Positions 2,793 to 19,360 of a stretch of DNA of 21,279 nt are shown in pieces. The DNA is from Dubosiella newyorkensis (GTDB lineage: Bacteria; Bacillota_I; Bacilli_A; Erysipelotrichales; Erysipelotrichaceae), in assembly GCF_001945605.1 (NCBI RefSeq), contig NZ_MPKA01000135.1:1-21279 (forward strand). The letters run 5' to 3'. Numbering within the stretch: position 1 is the first letter of the stretch; every line of letters starts with the position of its first letter. The notes under the pieces were generated by a model. It made no database searches and had not been told where the DNA came from. It saw nothing but the letters and a program-made list of their open reading frames with translations. A program made the position numbers and the translations under genes.

Positions 2793-3908
2793 TCAGCTTA
2801 GACGAAGCGAATCCTTTAAACCATCTGTACAATAGATCGCGTATCGATCCGTTGTGAATTGTGGAACGAGTCCATCGATTTTTTGATCAAGATTTACGAT
2901 CCATACAGCTTGCAAGTGATTGGCTTTGCAGAAGTCCATTCCTTCTTTGACAGGCATGCAGAATAGAGTCGTGCTCATCGCATCGGCCCATGCCGATTTA
3001 TCATGCGTATCGATCACAGTGACACTACGCATATATTCGGAAGGATATCCGGTCGTTGGATCGATGATATGACTATACTTTTTACCATCCACTTCCATAT
3101 ACCGCTGATAGTCTCCGGAAGTGACCATCACGACAGGACCCTTCGTCACAAATTGTACGACACTATCCGACTCGTCGGGAGATTGGATGCCAATGACCCA
3201 ATCTTTGCCGTTGAGCTTTTCACCAAGAAGAACGACATTGCCCCCGGCATTAATATAGCCATTGTTCAATCCCGCTTCATTCAATTTTTTGGCCGCGACG
3301 CCCGCCGTGTATCCTTTGGCGATCCCGCCAAGATCGAGCTTCAAGTTTGGATCCGTGAACTTTACCGTATCGCCACTGATCTTGATCGCTTGAATGCCAT
3401 CATGCTTTTTGGCCTCTTCAATATCTGTTGCGCTTGGCACATAAGGCGTTTTTGCCTCTCGTGCATCGTGCCACAAACTCAACACTTTTCCTTCAGAAAC
3501 ATCGAAGCGTTGATCAAGCTCGCCTGCCTTGATCGCAAGATCAAGACAATCAATCATTGCTGGATCGACTTTGACAGGATGCGAATACGCTTCTTGATTC
3601 AGAGTATAGACGTTGTTGATCCCTTCATACGAATGATATTGGTCAAAGATCTCGTTATACTCTCTAAACGTATCCTTTAAGATCGATTCATACTTGGCAA
3701 ACTGTTCTGGCGTACATGTGGCCTGGAAGGAAATCGGCGTATCGAAGCCTAAGTCGGTATACGTTTCGTTATACAATTTTGTCTTGCTCATCGAAGAGCG
3801 CGAACTCATAAAGGTAACTAAGCCAAAGATCAACACTAAAAAGCAAAGTGAACCAAAAATCCACAGCTTAATATGTGAAGTCTGTTTTTTTTGTTTATTT
3901 TGTTCCAT
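2793..3908 (-). CDS. apbE: FAD:protein FMN transferase (ApbE family), N-terminally membrane-anchored
   Basis: ApbE hallmarks are 'DLGGIAKGY', 'VMVTSGDYQRY' and 'YSHIIDPTTGYP'. The N-terminal hydrophobic segment is 'IKLWIFGSLCFLVLIFGLVTF'. I took the start as the ATG at 3908 (MEQNK...); the ORF-track start is a TTG at 3923. Neither has an SD (see findings). Confidence 0.85.
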   Translation of the reverse strand: MEQNKQKKQTSHIKLWIFGSLCFLVLIFGLVTFMSSRSSMSKTKLYNETYTDLGFDTPISFQATCTPEQFAKYESILKDTFREYNEIFDQYHSYEGINNVYTLNQEAYSHPVKVDPAMIDCLDLAIKAGELDQRFDVSEGKVLSLWHDAREAKTPYVPSATDIEEAKKHDGIQAIKISGDTVKFTDPNLKLDLGGIAKGYTAGVAAKKLNEAGLNNGYINAGGNVVLLGEKLNGKDWVIGIQSPDESDSVVQFVTKGPVVMVTSGDYQRYMEVDGKKYSHIIDPTTGYPSEYMRSVTVIDTHDKSAWADAMSTTLFCMPVKEGMDFCKANHLQAVWIVNLDQKIDGLVPQFTTDRYAIYCTDGLKDSLRLS

Positions 3909-3945
3909 GGTCCCATTATACAAAAAAGAGAAAGAATCCTAAAAT

Positions 3946-4024: not shown

Positions 4025-5314
4025 ATGTCACTTTTTCTTGGAAAAATGTGCGAACGGATCCCTGGTCACAAGTCAGCGACCGATCATGAGTCCATATTAG
4101 ATATCATGCCGACTAAAGAAGTCTATATTCCTTTAGTCGCTGGAAACAATACTAACTTCGAGATCCTCGTCAATGAAGGGGATCAAGTTTATATTGGTAC
4201 GAAGCTGGCCCAAACCAAAACGGGATTCAACGTTCCGATCTATTCAAGTGTTTCCGGAACATATACGGGACAAACAAAACGAATGCATTCTTCGCTCCGT
4301 CCGCAAAATCACATGGTCATTCAAATCGACCACAAACAAACAGCGATACAAGCTTTCGAACCGATCCAATATGAGAACGCGAGCGCAGAAGAGCTTCTCG
4401 AATTTACAAAAAATTCTGGTTTGGTTGGATTGGGAGGAGCTGGTTTTCCTACGTATGTTAAATACTTGAAGCCAGAAGGTATCCATACGATCTTGATCAA
4501 CGCGGTCGAATGCGAACCATACATCACAGCCGACTATAAACTCGTCATGAACGATCCAAAGCACTTGATCGATGGCGCCAAGATCATGAAAAAAATGGCT
4601 AACGCTCAACATGCGTACATCTGCATCAAAAAGAATCATCCCGATATGATCGATATCGTCAAACAAGCCGCTCAAGGCAGCGATATCGAAGTGAAGGAAG
4701 TGCCAAATGTCTATCCGATGGGGTGGGAGAGAGTGCTCGTCCGCGAAGTCATGAAAAAAGAATACGACAAATTGCCAAGTGAAGCAGGCGTGATCGTCAA
4801 TAATGCCGGAACGGCGATCGAGCTTGCAAGAATGATGGAATATGGCGAAGCGATCGCTAACAAAATCGTCACCGTATCAGGCGAAGCGGTCAAACGACCG
4901 ATCAATGTCCGCGTTCCTGTAGGAATGCCAGTAAAAGAAATCTTCGAGCAAACTGGCTTCAACACCGATTCTGTCCGTTTGATGGCAGGCGGACCGATGA
5001 TGGGAAAAGTCATTCCGAACGATATGTTCGTGATCGACCGCGCCATGAACGCGCTCACGATCCTTCCTGGAACCGTCGACGATGCTATCGCATGTCTACG
5101 CTGTGGTAGCTGTTCGGATCATTGTCCTGCCGGATTGCAGCCAGTGCGGATCGCGAACGCTGTCAAAGAAGGCAATCTTGAAGAAATGGAACGCCGCCAG
5201 GCGATGAGCTGTATCGAATGTGGCCTTTGCACCTACATATGTCCTAGCCACATCGAAGTCACAGAAAACGTGCGCAAAGCAAAACGGGCATTGGCTTTGC
5301 AGAAAAAGAAGTAG
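4025..5314 (+). CDS. rnfC: Rnf electron transport complex subunit C
   Basis: 'GLVGLGGAGFPTYVKY' is the NADH/FMN-binding module. Two ferredoxin-type motifs are present: 'CLRCGSCSDHCP' and 'CIECGLCTYICP'. It is the first gene of a C-D-G-E-A-B cluster. Confidence 0.95.
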   Translation: MSLFLGKMCERIPGHKSATDHESILDIMPTKEVYIPLVAGNNTNFEILVNEGDQVYIGTKLAQTKTGFNVPIYSSVSGTYTGQTKRMHSSLRPQNHMVIQIDHKQTAIQAFEPIQYENASAEELLEFTKNSGLVGLGGAGFPTYVKYLKPEGIHTILINAVECEPYITADYKLVMNDPKHLIDGAKIMKKMANAQHAYICIKKNHPDMIDIVKQAAQGSDIEVKEVPNVYPMGWERVLVREVMKKEYDKLPSEAGVIVNNAGTAIELARMMEYGEAIANKIVTVSGEAVKRPINVRVPVGMPVKEIFEQTGFNTDSVRLMAGGPMMGKVIPNDMFVIDRAMNALTILPGTVDDAIACLRCGSCSDHCPAGLQPVRIANAVKEGNLEEMERRQAMSCIECGLCTYICPSHIEVTENVRKAKRALALQKKK

Positions 5315-5325
5315 GGGGATGAAGT

Positions 5326-6498
5326 ATGAAGTTTAATTTCCACGTCAGCCCGAACTTGAAAGGAAAACAAACCACGCAACAGATCATGCGCGATCTAACG
5401 ATCGGACTTCTCGTCATCTTTCTTTGCGCATGTATCTATTATGGAATGAATTATGGAATGCGTTATGTTCTCCAATTGTTCCTTTTGCTGGCTTGTTCTC
5501 TATTGACAACTTTGGTGTGTGAAGCGATCTACGCCAAGATCTTAAAAATCGATATTAAAACTTTTTTGAAAAATTCATTTGGCTGGGTGACGGCGATCAT
5601 CTTGACGATGATGTGCCCGATCTCCATCACGCCATTCGCTTTGATCATTGCCACGATCTTCGCGATCGTGATCGGACGCCTTCTTTTTGGCGGGTTTGGT
5701 CAAAACATCTTCAATCCAGCCGCTGTTGGACGAGCTGTCATCTTCGCCGCGTTTGCTGGCGCCACGACAGACCTTGTCACATCAGCCACGCCAACGGCGA
5801 CGATCGCCAGCAACTATCATTGGCTTCCGGCAACGCCAGAAGTATTCGATAGTTTCTTGAGCGAATATGGTGGATTCTGGAATTTATTCCTCGGAAATTA
5901 TCCTGGGGCGATCGGAGAAACCTTCACCTTGGCGATCTTGGTCGTAGGCATTTTCTTGATCGTTCGTCATGTCATCGATTGGCGTGTACCTGTCATGTAT
6001 CTAGGCACGATCATCGTGATGACAGCGATCATCGCTCTTGTTTCAGGAATCGAATCGTACAATGGGATCCCAGCCTTGCTTTGGTATCCGGCCCTTCACT
6101 TAGTGACAGGAGGAATCGTGTTTGGAGCGGTGTTCATGCTTACCGACCCAGTCACCAACCCAACAAGCGCTGCAGGCCGTGTGTTCTTCGCGATGGGTGC
6201 AGCGATCCTGACCGTTCTTTTAAGAATGAAGGCGAACTTGCCAGAAGGCTGTCTGTATTCGATCTTGTTGATGAATATGTTCACGCCAATGATCGAGTCA
6301 GCGATGGATGGCAATCAGCTCAAGATCGCGAAAAAAGTTTGGATCACATTCGCTTGCTTCTGCGTTTTAGCCCTTGGCGTTTCTTTCTTTGCTGGAAGTA
6401 GCGTAGAACCAGTTCGCGAACTGAATACATCGTCTTCTGCAACAAACGGAGCCACGGCCTTTGAAATGCCAACGATCCAAGAGGAGGTCTCTTTATGA
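5326..6498 (+). CDS. rnfD: Rnf complex subunit D (NqrB-like membrane subunit)
   Basis: Polytopic membrane protein with 'GQNIFNPAAVGRAV', 'MLTDPVT' and a flavinylation-type motif 'DLVTSATPT'. Its stop overlaps the rnfG start (ATGA). Confidence 0.95.
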   Translation: MKFNFHVSPNLKGKQTTQQIMRDLTIGLLVIFLCACIYYGMNYGMRYVLQLFLLLACSLLTTLVCEAIYAKILKIDIKTFLKNSFGWVTAIILTMMCPISITPFALIIATIFAIVIGRLLFGGFGQNIFNPAAVGRAVIFAAFAGATTDLVTSATPTATIASNYHWLPATPEVFDSFLSEYGGFWNLFLGNYPGAIGETFTLAILVVGIFLIVRHVIDWRVPVMYLGTIIVMTAIIALVSGIESYNGIPALLWYPALHLVTGGIVFGAVFMLTDPVTNPTSAAGRVFFAMGAAILTVLLRMKANLPEGCLYSILLMNMFTPMIESAMDGNQLKIAKKVWITFACFCVLALGVSFFAGSSVEPVRELNTSSSATNGATAFEMPTIQEEVSL

Positions 6499-7004
6499 AA
6501 AAGATCATCCATCTCACTGTGTTCTTAGCGCTCGTCTCTGCGATCGCAGGCGGAGCCCTCGCCTACGCCAACCAGCTAACAGCGCCGATCATTCAAGAAA
6601 ACAACGAACGAGCTGAAAAACAAGTGCTCTTGGAAATGTATCCAAAAGCGAAAGTCGACGACTTTGAGATCATGGATGTCACGGTCGACAACCCAACAGT
6701 CAATAAGATCTACAGCTATGAAAACAACTATATCTTTAATATGTCTGTGTCTGGCTACAAAGATGGAACGACATTCTTGGTAGCGATCGACAAAGACAAT
6801 GGACAGATCACTGCTTTTAAAGCTATTTCGAATGGCGATACAAAAGGCATTGGTTCAAAAGTTACAGAAAGCGCATTTGCGGAAAGCTTGATCGGAAAAG
6901 AATCCAATGGGGAATTGGATACGATTTCAGGAGCGACTGTGACTTCGACACCAGTGATCGAAGGAATTCATGAGGCGAGCGATATCGTCGCCGAAATCGA
7001 TTAA
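6495..7004 (+). CDS. rnfG: Rnf complex subunit G (FMN-binding, NqrC-like)
   Basis: N-terminal membrane anchor, then 'LDTISGATVTS', the covalent-FMN threonine motif targeted by ApbE. SD GAGGAGG lies upstream. Confidence 0.9.
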   Translation: MKKIIHLTVFLALVSAIAGGALAYANQLTAPIIQENNERAEKQVLLEMYPKAKVDDFEIMDVTVDNPTVNKIYSYENNYIFNMSVSGYKDGTTFLVAIDKDNGQITAFKAISNGDTKGIGSKVTESAFAESLIGKESNGELDTISGATVTSTPVIEGIHEASDIVAEID

Positions 7005-7013
7005 GGGGGATGT

Positions 7014-7673
7014 ATGAACCGATTTGAAAATTTTAAAGCGGGCTTGATCAAAGACAACCCCGTCTTCGGCTTATATTTAGGAATTTGTTCGACTCTTGCC
7101 ATCACGACAACAGTCAACAACGCGATTGGTATGGGCGCGGCCGTTATCATGGTCTTGGTGCTCTCGAATATGATCATTTCCGCGATCCGCAAGATCGTGC
7201 CAGATGATATTCGTATTCCAGTCTTTATCGTGATCATCGCAACACTCGTAAAAATCATCCAAATGCTCATCGAAGCGTACGCGCCAGCGTTGAACACTTC
7301 GCTTGGCGTGTTTATTCCGCTCATCGTCGTGAACTGTATCATTCTTGGGCGCGCGGAAGCGTTCGCCAGCAAGCATGGTGTCCTTGATTCCGCATTGGAT
7401 GGAATCGGAATGGGTCTAGGCTATACGGTGGCTGTCATCGCGATGTCGTTTATTCGTGAAGTTTTATCCACAGGCATCTTGAATATCGTCAATCCGTTCA
7501 ACGATGCGCAAGTTTGGTTGAATGTCACCTTGATCCCGGCGGATTATACGATCCCGCTCTTTAATTCGCCTGTAGGCGCCTTTATCACATTTGCGTTATT
7601 AGCAGCCGCTTTGAGCGCCTATAAAACACATGCCGATAAAAAAGCGGAAGCCAAAGCAAAGGAGGTAAAGTAA
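7014..7673 (+). CDS. rnfE: Rnf complex subunit E (NqrD-like)
   Basis: 'NPVFGLYLGICSTLA' and 'GVFIPLIVVNCIILGRAEAFA' are the conserved RnfE/NqrD signature segments, including the two Cys. Confidence 0.95.
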   Translation: MNRFENFKAGLIKDNPVFGLYLGICSTLAITTTVNNAIGMGAAVIMVLVLSNMIISAIRKIVPDDIRIPVFIVIIATLVKIIQMLIEAYAPALNTSLGVFIPLIVVNCIILGRAEAFASKHGVLDSALDGIGMGLGYTVAVIAMSFIREVLSTGILNIVNPFNDAQVWLNVTLIPADYTIPLFNSPVGAFITFALLAAALSAYKTHADKKAEAKAKEVK

Positions 7674-7674
7674 G

Positions 7675-8250
7675 ATGTCCGAATTGATCACATTGTTTGT
7701 CACGAGCGTATTGATCAACAACGTCGTTTTGAACCAATTCTTAGGAATGTGTCCATTCATGGGTGTATCCAAGAAAAGAAGTTCTGCGATCGGTATGGGT
7801 CTTGCGGTTATCTTCGTTATCGTCGTTGCCGCTCTTATCACCTACGCGATCTACTATTGGATCCTCGTTCCGCTCAATTTGCAGTACATGGATTTGATCG
7901 CTTTCATTCTAGTCATCGCTTCTTTAGTGCAGTTGACAGAGATGTTTATCAAAAAAACAAGTCCAGCCCTCTATAAATCATTAGGGGTGTACTTGCCGTT
8001 GATCACGACCAACTGTGTCGTATTGAACGTATGCTTGGTCAATATTTCAAACAGTTATGATTTTGCTCATATGCTCGTTTATTCGATTGGTACGCCAATT
8101 GGTTTCGCGCTCGTTCTCTATATCTTCTCGACGATTCGGGAACGACTCGATATCGCCAATGTGCCAAATCCATTAAAAGGAAATCCGATCGCGATGATCG
8201 TGGCCGCTATCATGGCCATGGCGTTCAGCGGATTTGCAGGCATCGTATAA
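7675..8250 (+). CDS. rnfA: Rnf complex subunit A (NqrE-like)
   Basis: 'NNVVLNQFLGMCPFMGVS' and 'GVYLPLITTNCVVLNV' are RnfA/NqrE signatures, including the two Cys. SD AAGGAGG lies upstream. Confidence 0.95.
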   Translation: MSELITLFVTSVLINNVVLNQFLGMCPFMGVSKKRSSAIGMGLAVIFVIVVAALITYAIYYWILVPLNLQYMDLIAFILVIASLVQLTEMFIKKTSPALYKSLGVYLPLITTNCVVLNVCLVNISNSYDFAHMLVYSIGTPIGFALVLYIFSTIRERLDIANVPNPLKGNPIAMIVAAIMAMAFSGFAGIV

Positions 8251-8429
8251 TGGAATTAAAATCAGCGCTTGGAGCGATCGTCGTCTTTGGAAGTCTTGTC
8301 GGCGTATACATCACGTTATACAAGCTCAATAAAAAGACGCCGCTTCCTCCAGGATGCGAAGATCTAAAAGCGGATTGTGAAGGCTGCCACGATTATGCCT
8401 GCACGAACAATCCGCATCATGAACGATAA
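8250..8429 (+). CDS. Small (59 aa) single-TM, Cys/His-rich membrane protein of unknown function, encoded between rnfA and rnfB
   Basis: It falls just under the 60-aa cutoff, so it is absent from the ORF track. The ATG at 8250 overlaps the rnfA TAA (TAATG). Hand translation: MELKSALGAIVVFGSLVGVYITLYKLNKKTPLPPGCEDLKADCEGCHDYACTNNPHHER. The layout is hydrophobic helix, basic patch, then C-x6-C-x2-C-x4-C. It ends 14 nt before the rnfB ATG, and its codon style matches the flanking genes. Confidence 0.55.
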   Translation: MELKSALGAIVVFGSLVGVYITLYKLNKKTPLPPGCEDLKADCEGCHDYACTNNPHHER

Positions 8430-8443
8430 GAAAGGAGCTACGT

Positions 8444-8749
8444 ATGGGTACAGCGATCATAATGATGCTCGTTTTAGGCGCCGTATTAGGCTTAGGCCTA
8501 GGTCTTGCCAGCAAGTTCTTGCATGTGGAAGCCGATCCAAGAATCGACTACGTATCAGCCCTTCTTCCTAACTACAATTGTGGCGGATGCGGCTATGCTG
8601 GATGTTCAGCGCTGGCGGAAGCAATGGTGGAAGGCGAAGTTTCTGACTTCAAATGCAAGCCATGCAAAGCCGATAAAAAAGCGGAAATCATCGACTACTT
8701 AAAAAACACCCCAGGACCAGAAGGGGAAACGGTAACGATCAAAGGATAG
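8444..8749 (+). CDS. rnfB: Rnf complex subunit B, short form: membrane anchor plus N-terminal Fe-S domain only, no ferredoxin-like dicluster domains
   Basis: TM helix 'AIIMMLVLGAVLGLGLGLA', then 'LLPNYNCGGCGYAGCSALAEAMVEGEVSDFKCKPC', the RnfB N-terminal Fe-S cluster motif. SD AAGGAG lies upstream. The ORF stops at 101 aa, inside a terminator stem. Confidence 0.8.
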   Translation: MGTAIIMMLVLGAVLGLGLGLASKFLHVEADPRIDYVSALLPNYNCGGCGYAGCSALAEAMVEGEVSDFKCKPCKADKKAEIIDYLKNTPGPEGETVTIKG

Positions 8750-8768
8750 AGAAATCTATCCTTTTTTT
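8744..8768 (+). terminator. Rho-independent terminator of the rnf operon (GGATAG-agaaat-CTATCC followed by T7)
   Basis: Stem at 8744-8749 / 8756-8761, T-run at 8762-8768. The left arm contains the rnfB stop codon. Confidence 0.7.
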
Positions 8769-8774
8769 GTATAT

Positions 8775-8796
8775 AAAAAAGAGGCGTTTCTGCCTC
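8775..8796 (-). terminator. Rho-independent terminator for the minus-strand rqcH/vanZ-like operon (GAGGC-agaaac-GCCTC followed by T6 on the minus strand)
   Basis: Arms at 8781-8785 / 8792-8796. The A-run at 8775-8780 on the plus strand is the T-run on the minus strand. It lies 4 nt beyond the vanZ-like stop. Confidence 0.65.
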
Positions 8797-8799
8797 TGA

Positions 8800-9360
8800 T
8801 CAATACCAATAAAATAAGAAAAACCGACCAATATTCAAGACGAAGATAAACAGAAACAGCCATCGAAGCGGCAGCTTGTACGATCCAATCTTTTTGAAGA
8901 ATACAAAATAGATCAACCATCCGATGAAAACACCGAACGTGTTCATGATCAAATCATCCACATCGCTCACTCTTTCATTGAACAACTGGGAAAACTCAAT
9001 GAACAGCGAACCAAGAAAACCGCACCCCATAGTTTCTAGAAATGGATGCTTTTCCTTGAACAATAAGGGAATCAAAACCCCGAAAGGAACAAAAAGCACG
9101 ACATTCAAAACGTAGCCGATCTTCGAAATCCCGGTCGAAAACGGGACAAAATTCAAATTGAGATCCGCGGATGTAAAATCCAAAATATCAAAAATCGTGC
9201 TCGGATCGGTGAAGTGAAGCATGCCAGCGATATAGACACCAAAAGTCACGAGCAGATAAAACAGCGGATTGCTGATGTAAAGCATCCCTTTTTTCTTCAA
9301 ATGATTTAAAAGAAAGAAATAGGGAAGAAAGCTCGTCAAAAATTCGAACGTATTGATCAT
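8800..9360 (-). CDS. VanZ-like family membrane protein
   Basis: Multi-TM protein with 'NVVLFVPFGVLIPLLF' and 'SLFIEFSQLFNERVSDVDDLIMNTFGVFIGW', matching the VanZ family pattern. Its ATG overlaps the rqcH stop (ATGA, 9357-9360). Confidence 0.8.
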   Translation of the reverse strand: MINTFEFLTSFLPYFFLLNHLKKKGMLYISNPLFYLLVTFGVYIAGMLHFTDPSTIFDILDFTSADLNLNFVPFSTGISKIGYVLNVVLFVPFGVLIPLLFKEKHPFLETMGCGFLGSLFIEFSQLFNERVSDVDDLIMNTFGVFIGWLIYFVFFKKIGSYKLPLRWLFLFIFVLNIGRFFLFYWY

Positions 9361-16645: not shown

Positions 16646-16657
16646 CCTCTTTTTTTA
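16636..16657 (+). terminator. Rho-independent terminator of the nusA-infB-rbfA operon (AGAGGC-tta-GCCTCT followed by T7)
   Basis: Stem at 16636-16641 / 16645-16650, followed by a T-run to 16657. The stem overlaps the rbfA stop codon. Confidence 0.7.
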
Positions 16658-16751
16658 AATATAATGTTATATTGAGTATAAGAGCATTAAAGTTATATTT
16701 TCTCTAACTTAGAAATATCATATAGTTGTAAACGAATTCACTCTTGTTCTT

Positions 16752-16779
16752 AAGCCTGAAATTCCAGCAGGCTTTTTTT
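16752..16779 (+). terminator. Orphan terminator-like hairpin (AAGCCTG-9 nt-CAGGCTT followed by T7) in the AT-rich spacer before the adhesin gene
   Basis: Stem at 16752-16758 / 16768-16774, T-run at 16773-16779. No ORF ends just upstream. Confidence 0.45.
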
Positions 16780-17842
16780 AAAATGAAAAGAATTCACCAA
16801 CTTCAAATTTAGAAGTTTTAGGAGGTAGACTATGAATCATACTAAACGTGACGAGCACTCAAATTCGTGGAATCTTGCTAAAAAAACAGTTTTTACGATC
16901 AGTGGTCTTTTGTTTTCGTCGTTTTTGATGCAGCTGCCTATTTACGCGGAAGGACAAGATGCTGTCGATCCCGTTCAAGAAGTCGAAAAAGAAACGAGTC
17001 ATGAAGAAGGACAAAACTCACCAAATGAATCAAGTTTAGAAAGCCTCCATGAAGACTTGTCTGATCAGCCCAAAAACTTCCTCCTATAATCGAAGAAAAT
17101 ACCAAAGAGCCATCTTTCTCGCTCGATAACCCAGAATCTGTGAACCAACCAGCAACGCAAGAGGAAGCGCCAAGTAAGTTCAAGATCAACCAAAAAACGA
17201 AGCGACTCCAAGGATAGAAGCGGATGCGCAGTCATCTACTCCAGAAAAACAAAACAGCGTGGCGACACTCGATTTTATGATCAAGTCGAAGGCTCTTTGT
17301 TAGAGACAAAAACGTATACAAGCTATGTTGGCGATCCGATCGGGCTTCCTTCCAAAGAACAGCTCGAAGCGGAATATCCAAGCACAAAATATACGATCGT
17401 TTCCGGAATGTGGGATATTGATCCAATCTATCAAACCGACAGCAATAATAACCAATTCAAATTGTATTTAGGCCACGTATTTAAGGAAGAGGTCCGTGAA
17501 AAAGATGTTCATGTAACGACAGAGTTTCTAGATTACGAAACCAATGCCGTCCTTCATGCTCCAATCACGCAGACCGCTCATTTTGAACGAACATGCAAAG
17601 TCGATCAAGTCAATGGCAACTTCGTTTGGGGACCAGAACCCGATCCGTTCCAATTAAAAGGGATCGATTTGAGCTCTTTAGGTATCTATGAACAAGGGTA
17701 TAGGCCTAAACCGTGGAAAATCTCGAGCAATTTGATCGTGCATTATGATGATCTTGACGATACGCAAAGCGTTGTTGAATACTTCGCCAAAGGGTATGTC
17801 GCTACGATCAATTTTTATGATGACAGCGTCGATCCAAGCAAG

Positions 17843-18037
17843 AACGTGTTCTCGATCCATTATAAACATCGGCTTCTGCACGATACCTACGATGAAGATG
17901 TCACACGGACGATCCATTTGATCGATCAAATCAATCAAAAAGAGATCGCCGATCCGATCCAACAAATCGTGCATTTTAGCCTTCCTGGTGTTTACGGCTA
18001 TCACGCCAAGGAATGGACATGGGATTGGGATCATTTT
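17843..18037 (+). repeat. Intragenic repeat copy A (65 codons: NVFSIHYKH...VTRTIHLIDQINQ...WTWDWDHF)
   Basis: By hand alignment, about half of the 65 residues are identical to copy B. Nucleotide identity is high in the 'ACGATCCATTT.ATCGATCAA..CAATCAAAA' core. Confidence 0.7.
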
Positions 18038-18952
18038 AACGATACATCATCTTGGAAGGTGCTGAGTGCGAAAGAAATTAAAGACTATTTGGCGACTCAA
18101 AACAACGATCGATATATTTTGCTGAGCGATCCTGTACCGGCCCAGACTGTCGTCTATGATGAAAACGACACCGATCAAACGGTTGATCTCTACTTTGTGC
18201 CTGCCTATCAAGCCATTTTAAGATGGGTCGATGAAACGACTGGAAAAACGCTGGAAACATGGACTTCAAAAGAAGGAAAAGCGAACGATTCGATCGTTTT
18301 TGACGAAAACGTCCAACAGACGCTCGATCATTATCAAACACTTTATTATGATCTCGTATCCAATCCGATCAAAGAAGGGCTTGTATTGAATGACGATCCG
18401 ACTTTGAACGGTTACGCCATCTATTTAAAGCATCAGATCAAAACCGAACGTGTAAGCAATACTGTCAAAGTGCCAATCGATCTTTTGGCTGGCGATCCAA
18501 ATGACAAAACAACATGGAAGCTATTGCACCACGATGAATGGAGCCATACGTTCTATCGGCCTCAATACACCGATTTTGTTACTGGCGTGATCACATTTGG
18601 GGTATACGAGGATCCAAAAGAAGTGATGTTCGAATATACATTCCCGACTTTTGAAGGATACATGAAGCCTGATCCAGCACAATTTAGTCCGATGAAGGTC
18701 ACGTGCGATGATGAAACAGGTTTTTTGAGCATACAACAATTTTATATTCGCATCAAAGAAGCTGTACTGAATTTTATCGACGACGACCAAGACGGAAAGA
18801 TCGTTTGGAGCCAGAAAGCGACGATCGCCGAACACAAGCCGATCGAATTCGTCTATCGGGATTACTATAAAAAATGGTTTTCGGATCATGGCATGAAGGT
18901 TGTTTCGGATAATTATGAAAAGCGGATCATCAATATGGATGATCCGGCGAAA

Positions 18953-19147
18953 AACATCTTCGAGATCCATCTAGAACATGTCAAATCGCCAACGACATTT
19001 ACAAAAAAAGTGACGCGCACGATCCATTTTATCGATCAAGCCAATCAAAACGTATTGAAAGATCCGGTCGAACAAACCGTGACCTTCATATTGCAAGGAA
19101 CAAAAGACGAATGGAGTCAAGAAACGACATGGGACTGGGATCACTTC
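18953..19147 (+). repeat. Intragenic repeat copy B (65 codons: NIFEIHLEH...VTRTIHFIDQANQ...TTWDWDHF)
   Basis: Pairs with 17843-18037. It is the same length with the same conserved blocks (VTRTIH.IDQ.NQ, DP..Q.V.F, TWDWDHF). Confidence 0.7.
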
Positions 19148-19360
19148 AGCAACATCCAAGAATAGAGCGCTTATCAAGCGCCGGTTGCTAAAAACAACAC
19201 AAGTCGAGAAGAACATCAAACGGAGATCCCGGCTTATACAAAAAAAGCAACCTCTTCTTCGGTGCCTACAGTTGTTCATACAGGTATATTCCAAAGTCTG
19301 GTCGGCATGGCTGCTTCCTTGTTTGGGATTTCATTATTCAAAAAACATAAAAAGGAGTAA

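Follow-up and report, generated by a model that had tools for sequence, protein, structure and literature searches.

How does an Rnf complex receive its electrons when its RnfB subunit ends where the ferredoxin-type part of the protein would be expected to follow? The question is raised by a stretch of 21,279 nucleotides of Dubosiella newyorkensis (contig NZ_MPKA01000135.1, positions 1 to 21,279 of the forward strand), here called the window, in which rnfB, the last gene of a complete plus-strand rnf operon of the order rnfCDGEA-X-B, encodes a protein of only 101 residues. A preliminary description, made from the sequence without database searches, had taken this protein for an RnfB that retains its membrane anchor and N-terminal Fe-S domain and lacks any ferredoxin-type domain, and had asked what might then donate electrons to the complex. 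The analysis reported here indicates that the Dubosiella protein is probably a genuine and complete B subunit of a working, ion-pumping Rnf (a ferredoxin/flavodoxin:NAD+ oxidoreductase), in which the one-cluster domain would take electrons directly from a carrier.

A single-cluster RnfB

The gene and its immediate surroundings have the following features.

8444..8749, plus strand: rnfB, minimal form, 101 residues, ATG start, PF04060 as its only domain
8447..8518, plus strand: N-terminal transmembrane anchor of RnfB, residues 2-25 (AlphaFold2 helix, predicted local distance difference test, pLDDT, ~93; aligns with the transmembrane helix of 7zc6_B, 8ahx_B and 9eri_B)
8564..8662, plus strand: [4Fe-4S] domain of RnfB, PF04060, residues 41-73, with the Cys ligand motif Cx2Cx4Cx16C
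8696..8725, plus strand: C-terminal tail of RnfB, Y85 ... T89-P-G-P92 ... G94, conserved among short forms
8741..8764, plus strand: operon terminator hairpin with a 10-pair stem, a 4-nt loop and a T-run, holding the TAG stop of rnfB (8747-8749)
ending at 8800, minus strand: convergent VanZ gene, 50 nt downstream of rnfB, with its own terminator at 8797..8780

The gene, which has the sequence AAAGGAG 8 nt 5' of its ATG, encodes a protein of 10,525 Da. A Pfam scan of this protein returned PF04060 ('FeS') as the sole match (residues 41-73, E 3.8e-13, model positions 1-33 in full) and no Fer4 family, and the NCBIfam model for RnfB, TIGR01944, scored 68.3 bits, just under its cut-off of 68.7, over model positions 6-92 of 190, i.e., the N-terminal half only. 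When the whole window was scanned in six frames, the motif CxxCxxCxxxC was found at two sites only, both within rnfC (5093-5125 and 5210-5242), and in no frame of the rnfB open reading frame (ORF) or of the sequence downstream of it; a downstream Fer4 remnant is therefore ruled out. Thus, what the preliminary description had read from the letters alone, namely a retained anchor and Fe-S domain, the lack of any ferredoxin-type domain, the lack of a CxxCxxCxxxCP remnant downstream, and a stop codon inside the terminator stem with the end of a convergent gene at 50 nt, was borne out by the profile searches, the structure model and the motif scan.

Comparison with long RnfB proteins shows which part of the subunit has been kept. 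Residues 4-84 of the Dubosiella protein can be aligned (E ~1e-12) to the N-terminal ~90 residues of RnfB from C. tetanomorphum (7zc6_B, 274 residues), A. woodii (9eri_B, 333 residues) and A. vinelandii Rnf1 (8ahx_B, 174 residues), which share with it a homologous N-terminal transmembrane helix and mobile single-cluster domain. This single-cluster domain, named FdI in C. tetanomorphum and B8 in A. woodii, forms the final relay ahead of the membrane in the long proteins; the B8 domain of A. woodii (residues 30-100) is mobile and approaches the [2Fe-2S] cluster of RnfA/E, and validation of the A. woodii pathway included mutation of B8 Cys residues. The C-terminal domain of long RnfB proteins, which is regarded as the ferredoxin acceptor, adds 2-7 [4Fe-4S] clusters (PMC12174285), whereas in Dubosiella RnfB this polycluster domain is wholly missing. 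The Dubosiella protein is exactly an anchor plus a mobile relay domain, equivalent to FdI or B8 of the long forms, and within the complex it presumably occupies the RnfA/E side, as they do.

The AlphaFold2 model (pLDDT 90) consists of the transmembrane helix and a small three-helix domain. Its best Foldseek matches were the N-terminal [4Fe-4S] domains of the large subunit of the corrinoid iron-sulfur protein (CFeSP), also of family PF04060 (9fzy_F, 4djd_C and 2ycl_A; probability 0.99-1.0, root-mean-square deviation 1.1-1.6 Å over ~50 residues). A relationship between the FdI domain of RnfB and the N-terminal [4Fe-4S] domain of CFeSP has been described previously (Vitt et al., PMC9588780). The Cys spacing of the CFeSP domain is that of Dubosiella RnfB, but in CFeSP the domain forms the soluble N-terminus of a 440-residue corrinoid protein that has neither a membrane anchor nor Rnf partners. 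The solved RnfB chains were not among the Foldseek returns for the model, probably because FdI/B8 is poorly resolved or unmodelled in those structures.

Distribution and precedent of the short form

In the assembly collection the identical RnfB turns up in 1403 indexed blocks, and the six loci viewed have the same operon. A homologue search returned 275 proteins, the best 120 of which were all 88-124 residues long with PF04060 as their sole precomputed domain and came from Floccifex, Faecalibaculum, Catenisphaera, Longicatena and Erysipelotrichaceae without a genus name. Scanning one genome per species detected a relative in 433 species genomes. Counts of related loci given below for the synteny of RnfB and RnfX (the 59-residue protein encoded next to it) refer to the best 80 of these 433, with 81 loci for the stop position, and the genomic surroundings were inspected over ~20 kb around the rnf operon. 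The best 80 genomes belong to Allobaculum, Dubosiella, Ileibacterium, Faecalibaculum, Floccifex, Holdemania, Holdemanella, Faecalicoccus, Solobacterium, Longicatena, Amedibacillus, Merdibacter, Faecalitalea and Catenisphaera.

The gene order of the window recurred in the 80 related loci. Counted from the anchor-proximal Met, RnfB was 101-107 residues long in the 81 loci, and the stop lay 7-9 residues past the TPGPxG tail in every one of them. Across 49 aligned sequences the Cx2Cx4Cx16C motif keeps its four Cys without exception; Y85, P90, G91 and G94 of the tail are likewise invariant, and T89 and P92 are kept in at least 90%. An additional ORF with CxxCxxCxxxC, as expected of a neighboring stand-alone ferredoxin, was absent within ~9 kb in 79 of the 81 loci. 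Among 1.84 billion cluster representatives, end-to-end matches of ~100-110 residues with 36-50% identity were also found, the named sources being Anaeroplasma sp. and 'Bacilli bacterium' genomes. Judged by these alignments, the short RnfB is a settled architecture encoded by a complete gene, and the short form is the rule in the Erysipelotrichaceae lineage; orthologues that share this length number in the hundreds, and the tail is invariant, in agreement with the earlier suggestion that this is not a fresh truncation.

Other arrangements were seen around and within more distant relatives. In two proteins, P0130 (182 residues) and P0154 (231 residues), two tandem PF04060-like domains come after an RnfB-type anchor; each protein has two Cx2Cx4C...C motifs and no Fer4 domain, and the pair represents another unusual RnfB architecture. 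In two distant Bacilli (L087, 8341..10212; L088, 8338..10448) the short rnfB is followed on its 3' side by a conserved trio of apbE, a PF07009 NusG_II gene and a gene for a PF07456 Hpre_diP_synt_I membrane protein.

Regarding precedent, the RnfB of T. maritima has a mass of 10.56 kDa and one predicted cluster (Kuhns et al. 2020, PMC7414866; also Vitt et al. 2022, PMC9588780), and the purified T. maritima Rnf, described with six canonical genes only, is an active Fd:NAD+ oxidoreductase with C. pasteurianum ferredoxin and pumps Na+ (PMC7414866). Compared by mass and cluster number, the Dubosiella protein (10,525 Da, one predicted [4Fe-4S] cluster) resembles it closely, and in both organisms rnfB closes an rnfCDGEA...B operon. 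They differ in phylum (Thermotogae versus Bacillota/Erysipelotrichaceae) and in that the T. maritima operon was reported without RnfX; the TPGPxG tail is possibly a peculiarity of the Erysipelotrichaceae form. The minimal architecture is hence already known and biochemically validated in another phylum, and what is new is the prevalence of short RnfB in Erysipelotrichaceae and allied Bacilli, which is a fact of distribution and not a new type of system.

This precedent bears on two statements of the preliminary description. Its premise that characterised RnfB proteins span about 190-330 residues and carry a ferredoxin-type domain does not hold, given the 174 residues of 8ahx_B and the 10.56 kDa of the T. 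maritima protein, and with an RnfB of the same mass in a purified and active complex the implied novelty of the short form falls away. It had also allowed that short forms might prove common and already characterised in this lineage: common they are, as the 433 species genomes show, but their characterization is confined to Thermotogae and does not extend to Erysipelotrichaceae. A literature search on short RnfB in Erysipelotrichaceae found nothing relevant, the flavinylation surveys are silent on the short form, and a 2025 review gives RnfB a C-terminal domain of two to seven clusters without taking up short forms (PMC12174285).

The operon core and a proposed route of electrons

All six canonical Rnf subunits are encoded in the window, and the partners of RnfB were identified by Pfam or NCBIfam as follows.

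2793..3923, minus strand: apbE, flavin transferase, divergent from the rnf operon (PF02424 ApbE, E 3.6e-67)
4025..5314, plus strand: rnfC, 429 residues, NAD(H)/flavin mononucleotide (FMN) subunit with two [4Fe-4S] motifs (TIGR01945, 338.9 bits, cut-off 245.95)
5326..6498, plus strand: rnfD, 390 residues (PF03116, E 1.5e-77, residues 6-328 of 390)
6495..7004, plus strand: rnfG, 169 residues, FMN-binding subunit (PF04205 FMN_bind, E 3.8e-12)
7014..7673, plus strand: rnfE, 219 residues (NF009070, 253.8 bits, cut-off 184)
7675..8250, plus strand: rnfA, 191 residues (TIGR01943, 255.9 bits, cut-off 229.3)

RnfC has Pfam matches to RnfC_N, Complex1_51K, SLBB and Fer4 families, and RnfG contains the flavinylation-type motif SGAT (in '...DTISGATVTS...'). 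RnfD extends ~60 residues beyond its Pfam match at the C-terminus; past residue 328 it has one more hydrophobic helix and a tail rich in Ser/Thr (...SSSATNGATAF...). C25 and C108 of RnfE align with the [2Fe-2S] ligands C25 and C108 of A. woodii RnfE, and C26 and C114 of RnfA with the ligands C25 and C113 of A. woodii RnfA, so that by alignment the four Cys ligands of the RnfA/E [2Fe-2S] centre are conserved in Dubosiella. The position of apbE is kept in most related loci.

The view that RnfB serves a working complex is supported by this intact core, i.e., the six subunits, the conserved RnfA/E ligands, the SGAT motif of RnfG and the adjacent apbE. The domain content, Cys ligands and predicted fold of RnfB, its membership in the operon, its conservation and the intact ligands of the core were established in this analysis, and activity of a one-cluster Rnf with ferredoxin in the literature; the following route would build on them. 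A soluble ferredoxin or flavodoxin would give electrons directly to the single cluster of RnfB, whose tethered [4Fe-4S] domain may swing from this low-potential carrier to RnfA/E on the cytoplasmic side, where it would pass the electron to the intramembrane [2Fe-2S] cluster. From there electrons would proceed to the FMN of RnfG, the flavins of RnfD, the clusters and FMN of RnfC and finally to NAD+, or in the reverse direction, and the polyferredoxin 'wire' of the long RnfB proteins would be dispensable. For Dubosiella, we infer the direct docking of the carrier, the identity of that carrier, the direction of flow and the coupling ion.

Several points weigh against this proposal. The literature yielded no biochemical data for any Erysipelotrichaceae Rnf. 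In A. woodii a basic C-terminal region has been proposed to attract ferredoxin, whereas the soluble part of Dubosiella RnfB is acidic (isoelectric point 4.6), and the direct docking of an acidic ferredoxin is thus not obviously favored. Furthermore, RnfX is Cys-rich and strictly syntenic, from which it could follow that RnfB does not form the input module by itself.

RnfX and the alternative readings

The small gene between rnfA and rnfB, here termed rnfX, has two features of note.

8250..8429, plus strand: rnfX, 59-residue membrane protein with a transmembrane helix and a four-Cys motif, between rnfA and rnfB
8355..8402, plus strand: four-Cys motif of RnfX, residues 36-51 (from alignments; predicted to lie on the cytoplasmic side)

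Its ATG overlaps the stop codon of rnfA (TAATG, 8250), which suggests translational coupling. The protein consists of a transmembrane helix (residues 3-29) followed by C36-x6-C43-x2-C46-x4-C51, in which the first gap is one residue shorter than in the family consensus C-x7-C-x2-C-x4-C, and the KLNKK stretch after the helix would, by the positive-inside rule, place the Cys motif on the cytoplasmic side. In 50 sequences N27, T30, P33, G35, C36, E37, C43, G45, C46 and C51 are invariant, and the family pattern is a transmembrane helix followed by N..TP.P.GCE...C.GC....C. The family has 560 detectable members, and the protein of the window is named hypothetical protein. In the AlphaFold2 model the helix is predicted with pLDDT >90 and the Cys loop with moderate pLDDT of 70-77; a fold search against PDB gave no match.

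The position of RnfX is highly regular. It lies between rnfA and rnfB in 80 of 80 related loci and also occurs in three distant short-RnfB operons (L087, L088 and, as an uncalled ORF, L089); in total this position was recorded at 84 loci. In L087 and L088 the gene order is rnfA-rnfX-rnfB-apbE, and the L087 member has three Cys only. A strict tie between RnfX and short RnfB is ruled out by L090 and L091, in which the short rnfB directly follows rnfA and no RnfX was found within 7 kb, so that RnfX is not required by a minimal RnfB. RnfX was absent from L092, the one canonical long-RnfB operon inspected. A 63-residue transmembrane protein with C-x6-C-x2-C-x6-C is encoded directly after rnfA in L093 (2118..2309, minus strand), where a long rnfB (266 residues) is placed separately from rnfA; its architecture is like that of RnfX, but the sequence similarity is not significant (hhalign probability 40%).

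Regarding known families, no curated Pfam or NCBIfam family matched RnfX at threshold. PF12669, whose members are likewise small with a transmembrane helix and a Cys-rich tail, scored 14.3 bits against a gathering threshold of 27 (E 0.05), with weak matches in 13 of 29 RnfX members (best E 0.003, all sub-threshold); one metagenomic member, P0393, has a precomputed PF12669 label, and some members are so named in UniRef. Unlike genes of the PF12669 type, which lie downstream of feoB or are fused to it, that of RnfX never adjoins feoB in the loci examined and always lies between rnfA and rnfB, and with sub-threshold matches only, membership in PF12669 was rejected. NqrM, which serves in the Fe-S maturation of Na+-NQR as a small membrane protein and is co-encoded with apbE, resembles RnfX in architecture only, RnfX also being small, with a single transmembrane helix and conserved Cys, and encoded in a pump operon near apbE. 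The two differ in that RnfX has no detectable sequence similarity to NqrM: the NqrM/DUF539 profile PF04400 matched none of 29 members at E up to 10, and homology to NqrM was likewise rejected.

RnfX is anchored in the membrane and hence cannot be a soluble electron donor. The small Cys-rich neighbor that the preliminary description had offered as one candidate donor is accordingly unlikely in that role as stated, but it has turned out to be a conserved member of the operon. A possible, though not the more probable, reading makes it a seventh component, specific to Rnf and hitherto undescribed, of Erysipelotrichaceae and allied Bacilli, which would be either a counterpart of NqrM inserting the intramembrane [2Fe-2S] cluster or a metal- or cluster-binding subunit acting with the one-cluster RnfB as a two-part entry module for electrons.

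Taken separately, the first of these roles is a possible but somewhat doubtful one: RnfX would act in assembly as NqrM does, supplying the intramembrane RnfA/E centre, or RnfB, with iron or Fe-S without being part of the finished enzyme. Only RnfX is at issue in this reading, which agrees with RnfB being a complete subunit. It is consistent with the architecture shared with NqrM (one transmembrane helix and conserved Cys), with the position of the gene directly after rnfA, with the rnfA-rnfX-rnfB-apbE order of L087 and L088, and with the Cys motif of the PF12669 family, which is regarded as iron-binding (PMC8749426). The failure of every RnfX member to match PF04400 even at E up to 10 argues against it, as do PF12669 matches that all fall under the gathering score and the lack of such a gene in most Rnf operons, including structurally solved ones.

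An unlikely role is that of a seventh subunit binding Fe-S or iron through its four Cys at the cytoplasmic membrane face, which would provide an additional relay or docking site between the soluble carrier and the RnfB cluster or stabilize the minimal RnfB, and so make up in function for some of the polyferredoxin domain that is missing. The invariant synteny in the 80 Erysipelotrichaceae loci and in L087, L088 and L089, the suggested translational coupling to rnfA, the invariant four Cys with their flanking N..TP.P.GCE motif, a C-x2-C-x4-C core spaced like the first three ligands of PF04060, and the absence of RnfX from the long-RnfB operon L092, the one checked, would all fit such a composite input module. 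They have to be set against the short-RnfB operons L090 and L091, which lack RnfX within 7 kb, the three Cys of the L087 member, the T. maritima Rnf described with six canonical genes only, and a Cys loop that is predicted at pLDDT 70-77 and has no structural match.

It is improbable that RnfB is split, with a polyferredoxin part encoded elsewhere that docks on RnfC and RnfB and preserves a multi-cluster entry wire. The genomic view was limited to the ~20 kb around the operon, and since FdII+III of the long forms is held mainly by RnfC and not by FdI (PMC9588780), a separate polypeptide is conceivable; however, no other CxxCxxCxxxC ORF lies within ~9 kb in 79 of the 81 loci, and the T. maritima preparation, reported to contain Rnf subunits, is active without such a partner.

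Some relatives have additional extracytosolic flavin modules. RnfD ORFs of 459-701 residues were found in L019, L035-L037, L045, L052, L057, L058, L065 and L070, and also in L075-L077, L079, L081, L084 and L089, the last with a weak FMN_bind match; these lengths, taken from first-start calls, are upper bounds. The long RnfD ORFs suggest fusion of extra extracytosolic flavin domains. Enlarged rnfG ORFs of 397-490 residues occur in L026, L033, L035-L037 and L061, and an extra FMN_bind gene of 363-390 residues lies between rnfD and rnfG in L090 (4143..5234) and L091 (4026..5198), the same two short-RnfB operons that are without RnfX. These longer RnfD and RnfG proteins, the weak match in L089 and the extra genes of L090 and L091 would be compatible with a changed function, in which the complex no longer couples to ferredoxin and mainly serves to pass NADH electrons to flavoproteins outside the cytosol, with RnfB as a reduced relic. 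We consider this very improbable, as the Cys and tail of RnfB and the [2Fe-2S] ligands of RnfA/E are strictly conserved, which is unexpected for a relic, and the Dubosiella operon has no extra FMN_bind domain.

A recent truncation, pseudogene or assembly artefact, for which the short length alone would speak, has virtually no probability and is refuted by a length and stop position common to all 81 loci of different genera, an invariant C-terminal tail with the terminator directly after it, and an identical protein in 1403 blocks of independent assemblies.

Away from the rnf operon, the region after rbfA (window ~16650..19165; 18200..20306 in L001-L006) varies among near-identical strains. It contains small ORFs and a MucBP-domain surface protein of 622-687 residues, with other genes instead in L004, and is a strain-variable adhesin locus.

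The conclusion that Dubosiella RnfB is probably a complete B subunit makes it the smallest electron-entry module possible for an Rnf pump, the function of which the T. maritima enzyme has already demonstrated. The minimal form is standard in a large, gut-abundant clade that includes Dubosiella, Faecalibaculum, Holdemanella, Allobaculum and others, and in Anaeroplasma-like Bacilli. We know of no described assembly route for the intramembrane Fe-S centre of Rnf, and to our knowledge only NQR has a named factor (NqrM); RnfX, the conserved, unannotated seventh gene of these rnf operons, is a more original lead than the minimal RnfB. Short RnfB homologues are named '(Fe-S)-binding protein' by NCBI, probably because the score falls 0.4 bits below the TIGR01944 cut-off. 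As Rnf has been defined by the RnfB call K03616 in one survey (PMC8238504), surveys keyed to that call may under-count Rnf in these genomes. The carriers of the short form are mesophilic and some are cultured, and they thus provide material for studying how a soluble carrier would dock directly on the mobile FeS domain.

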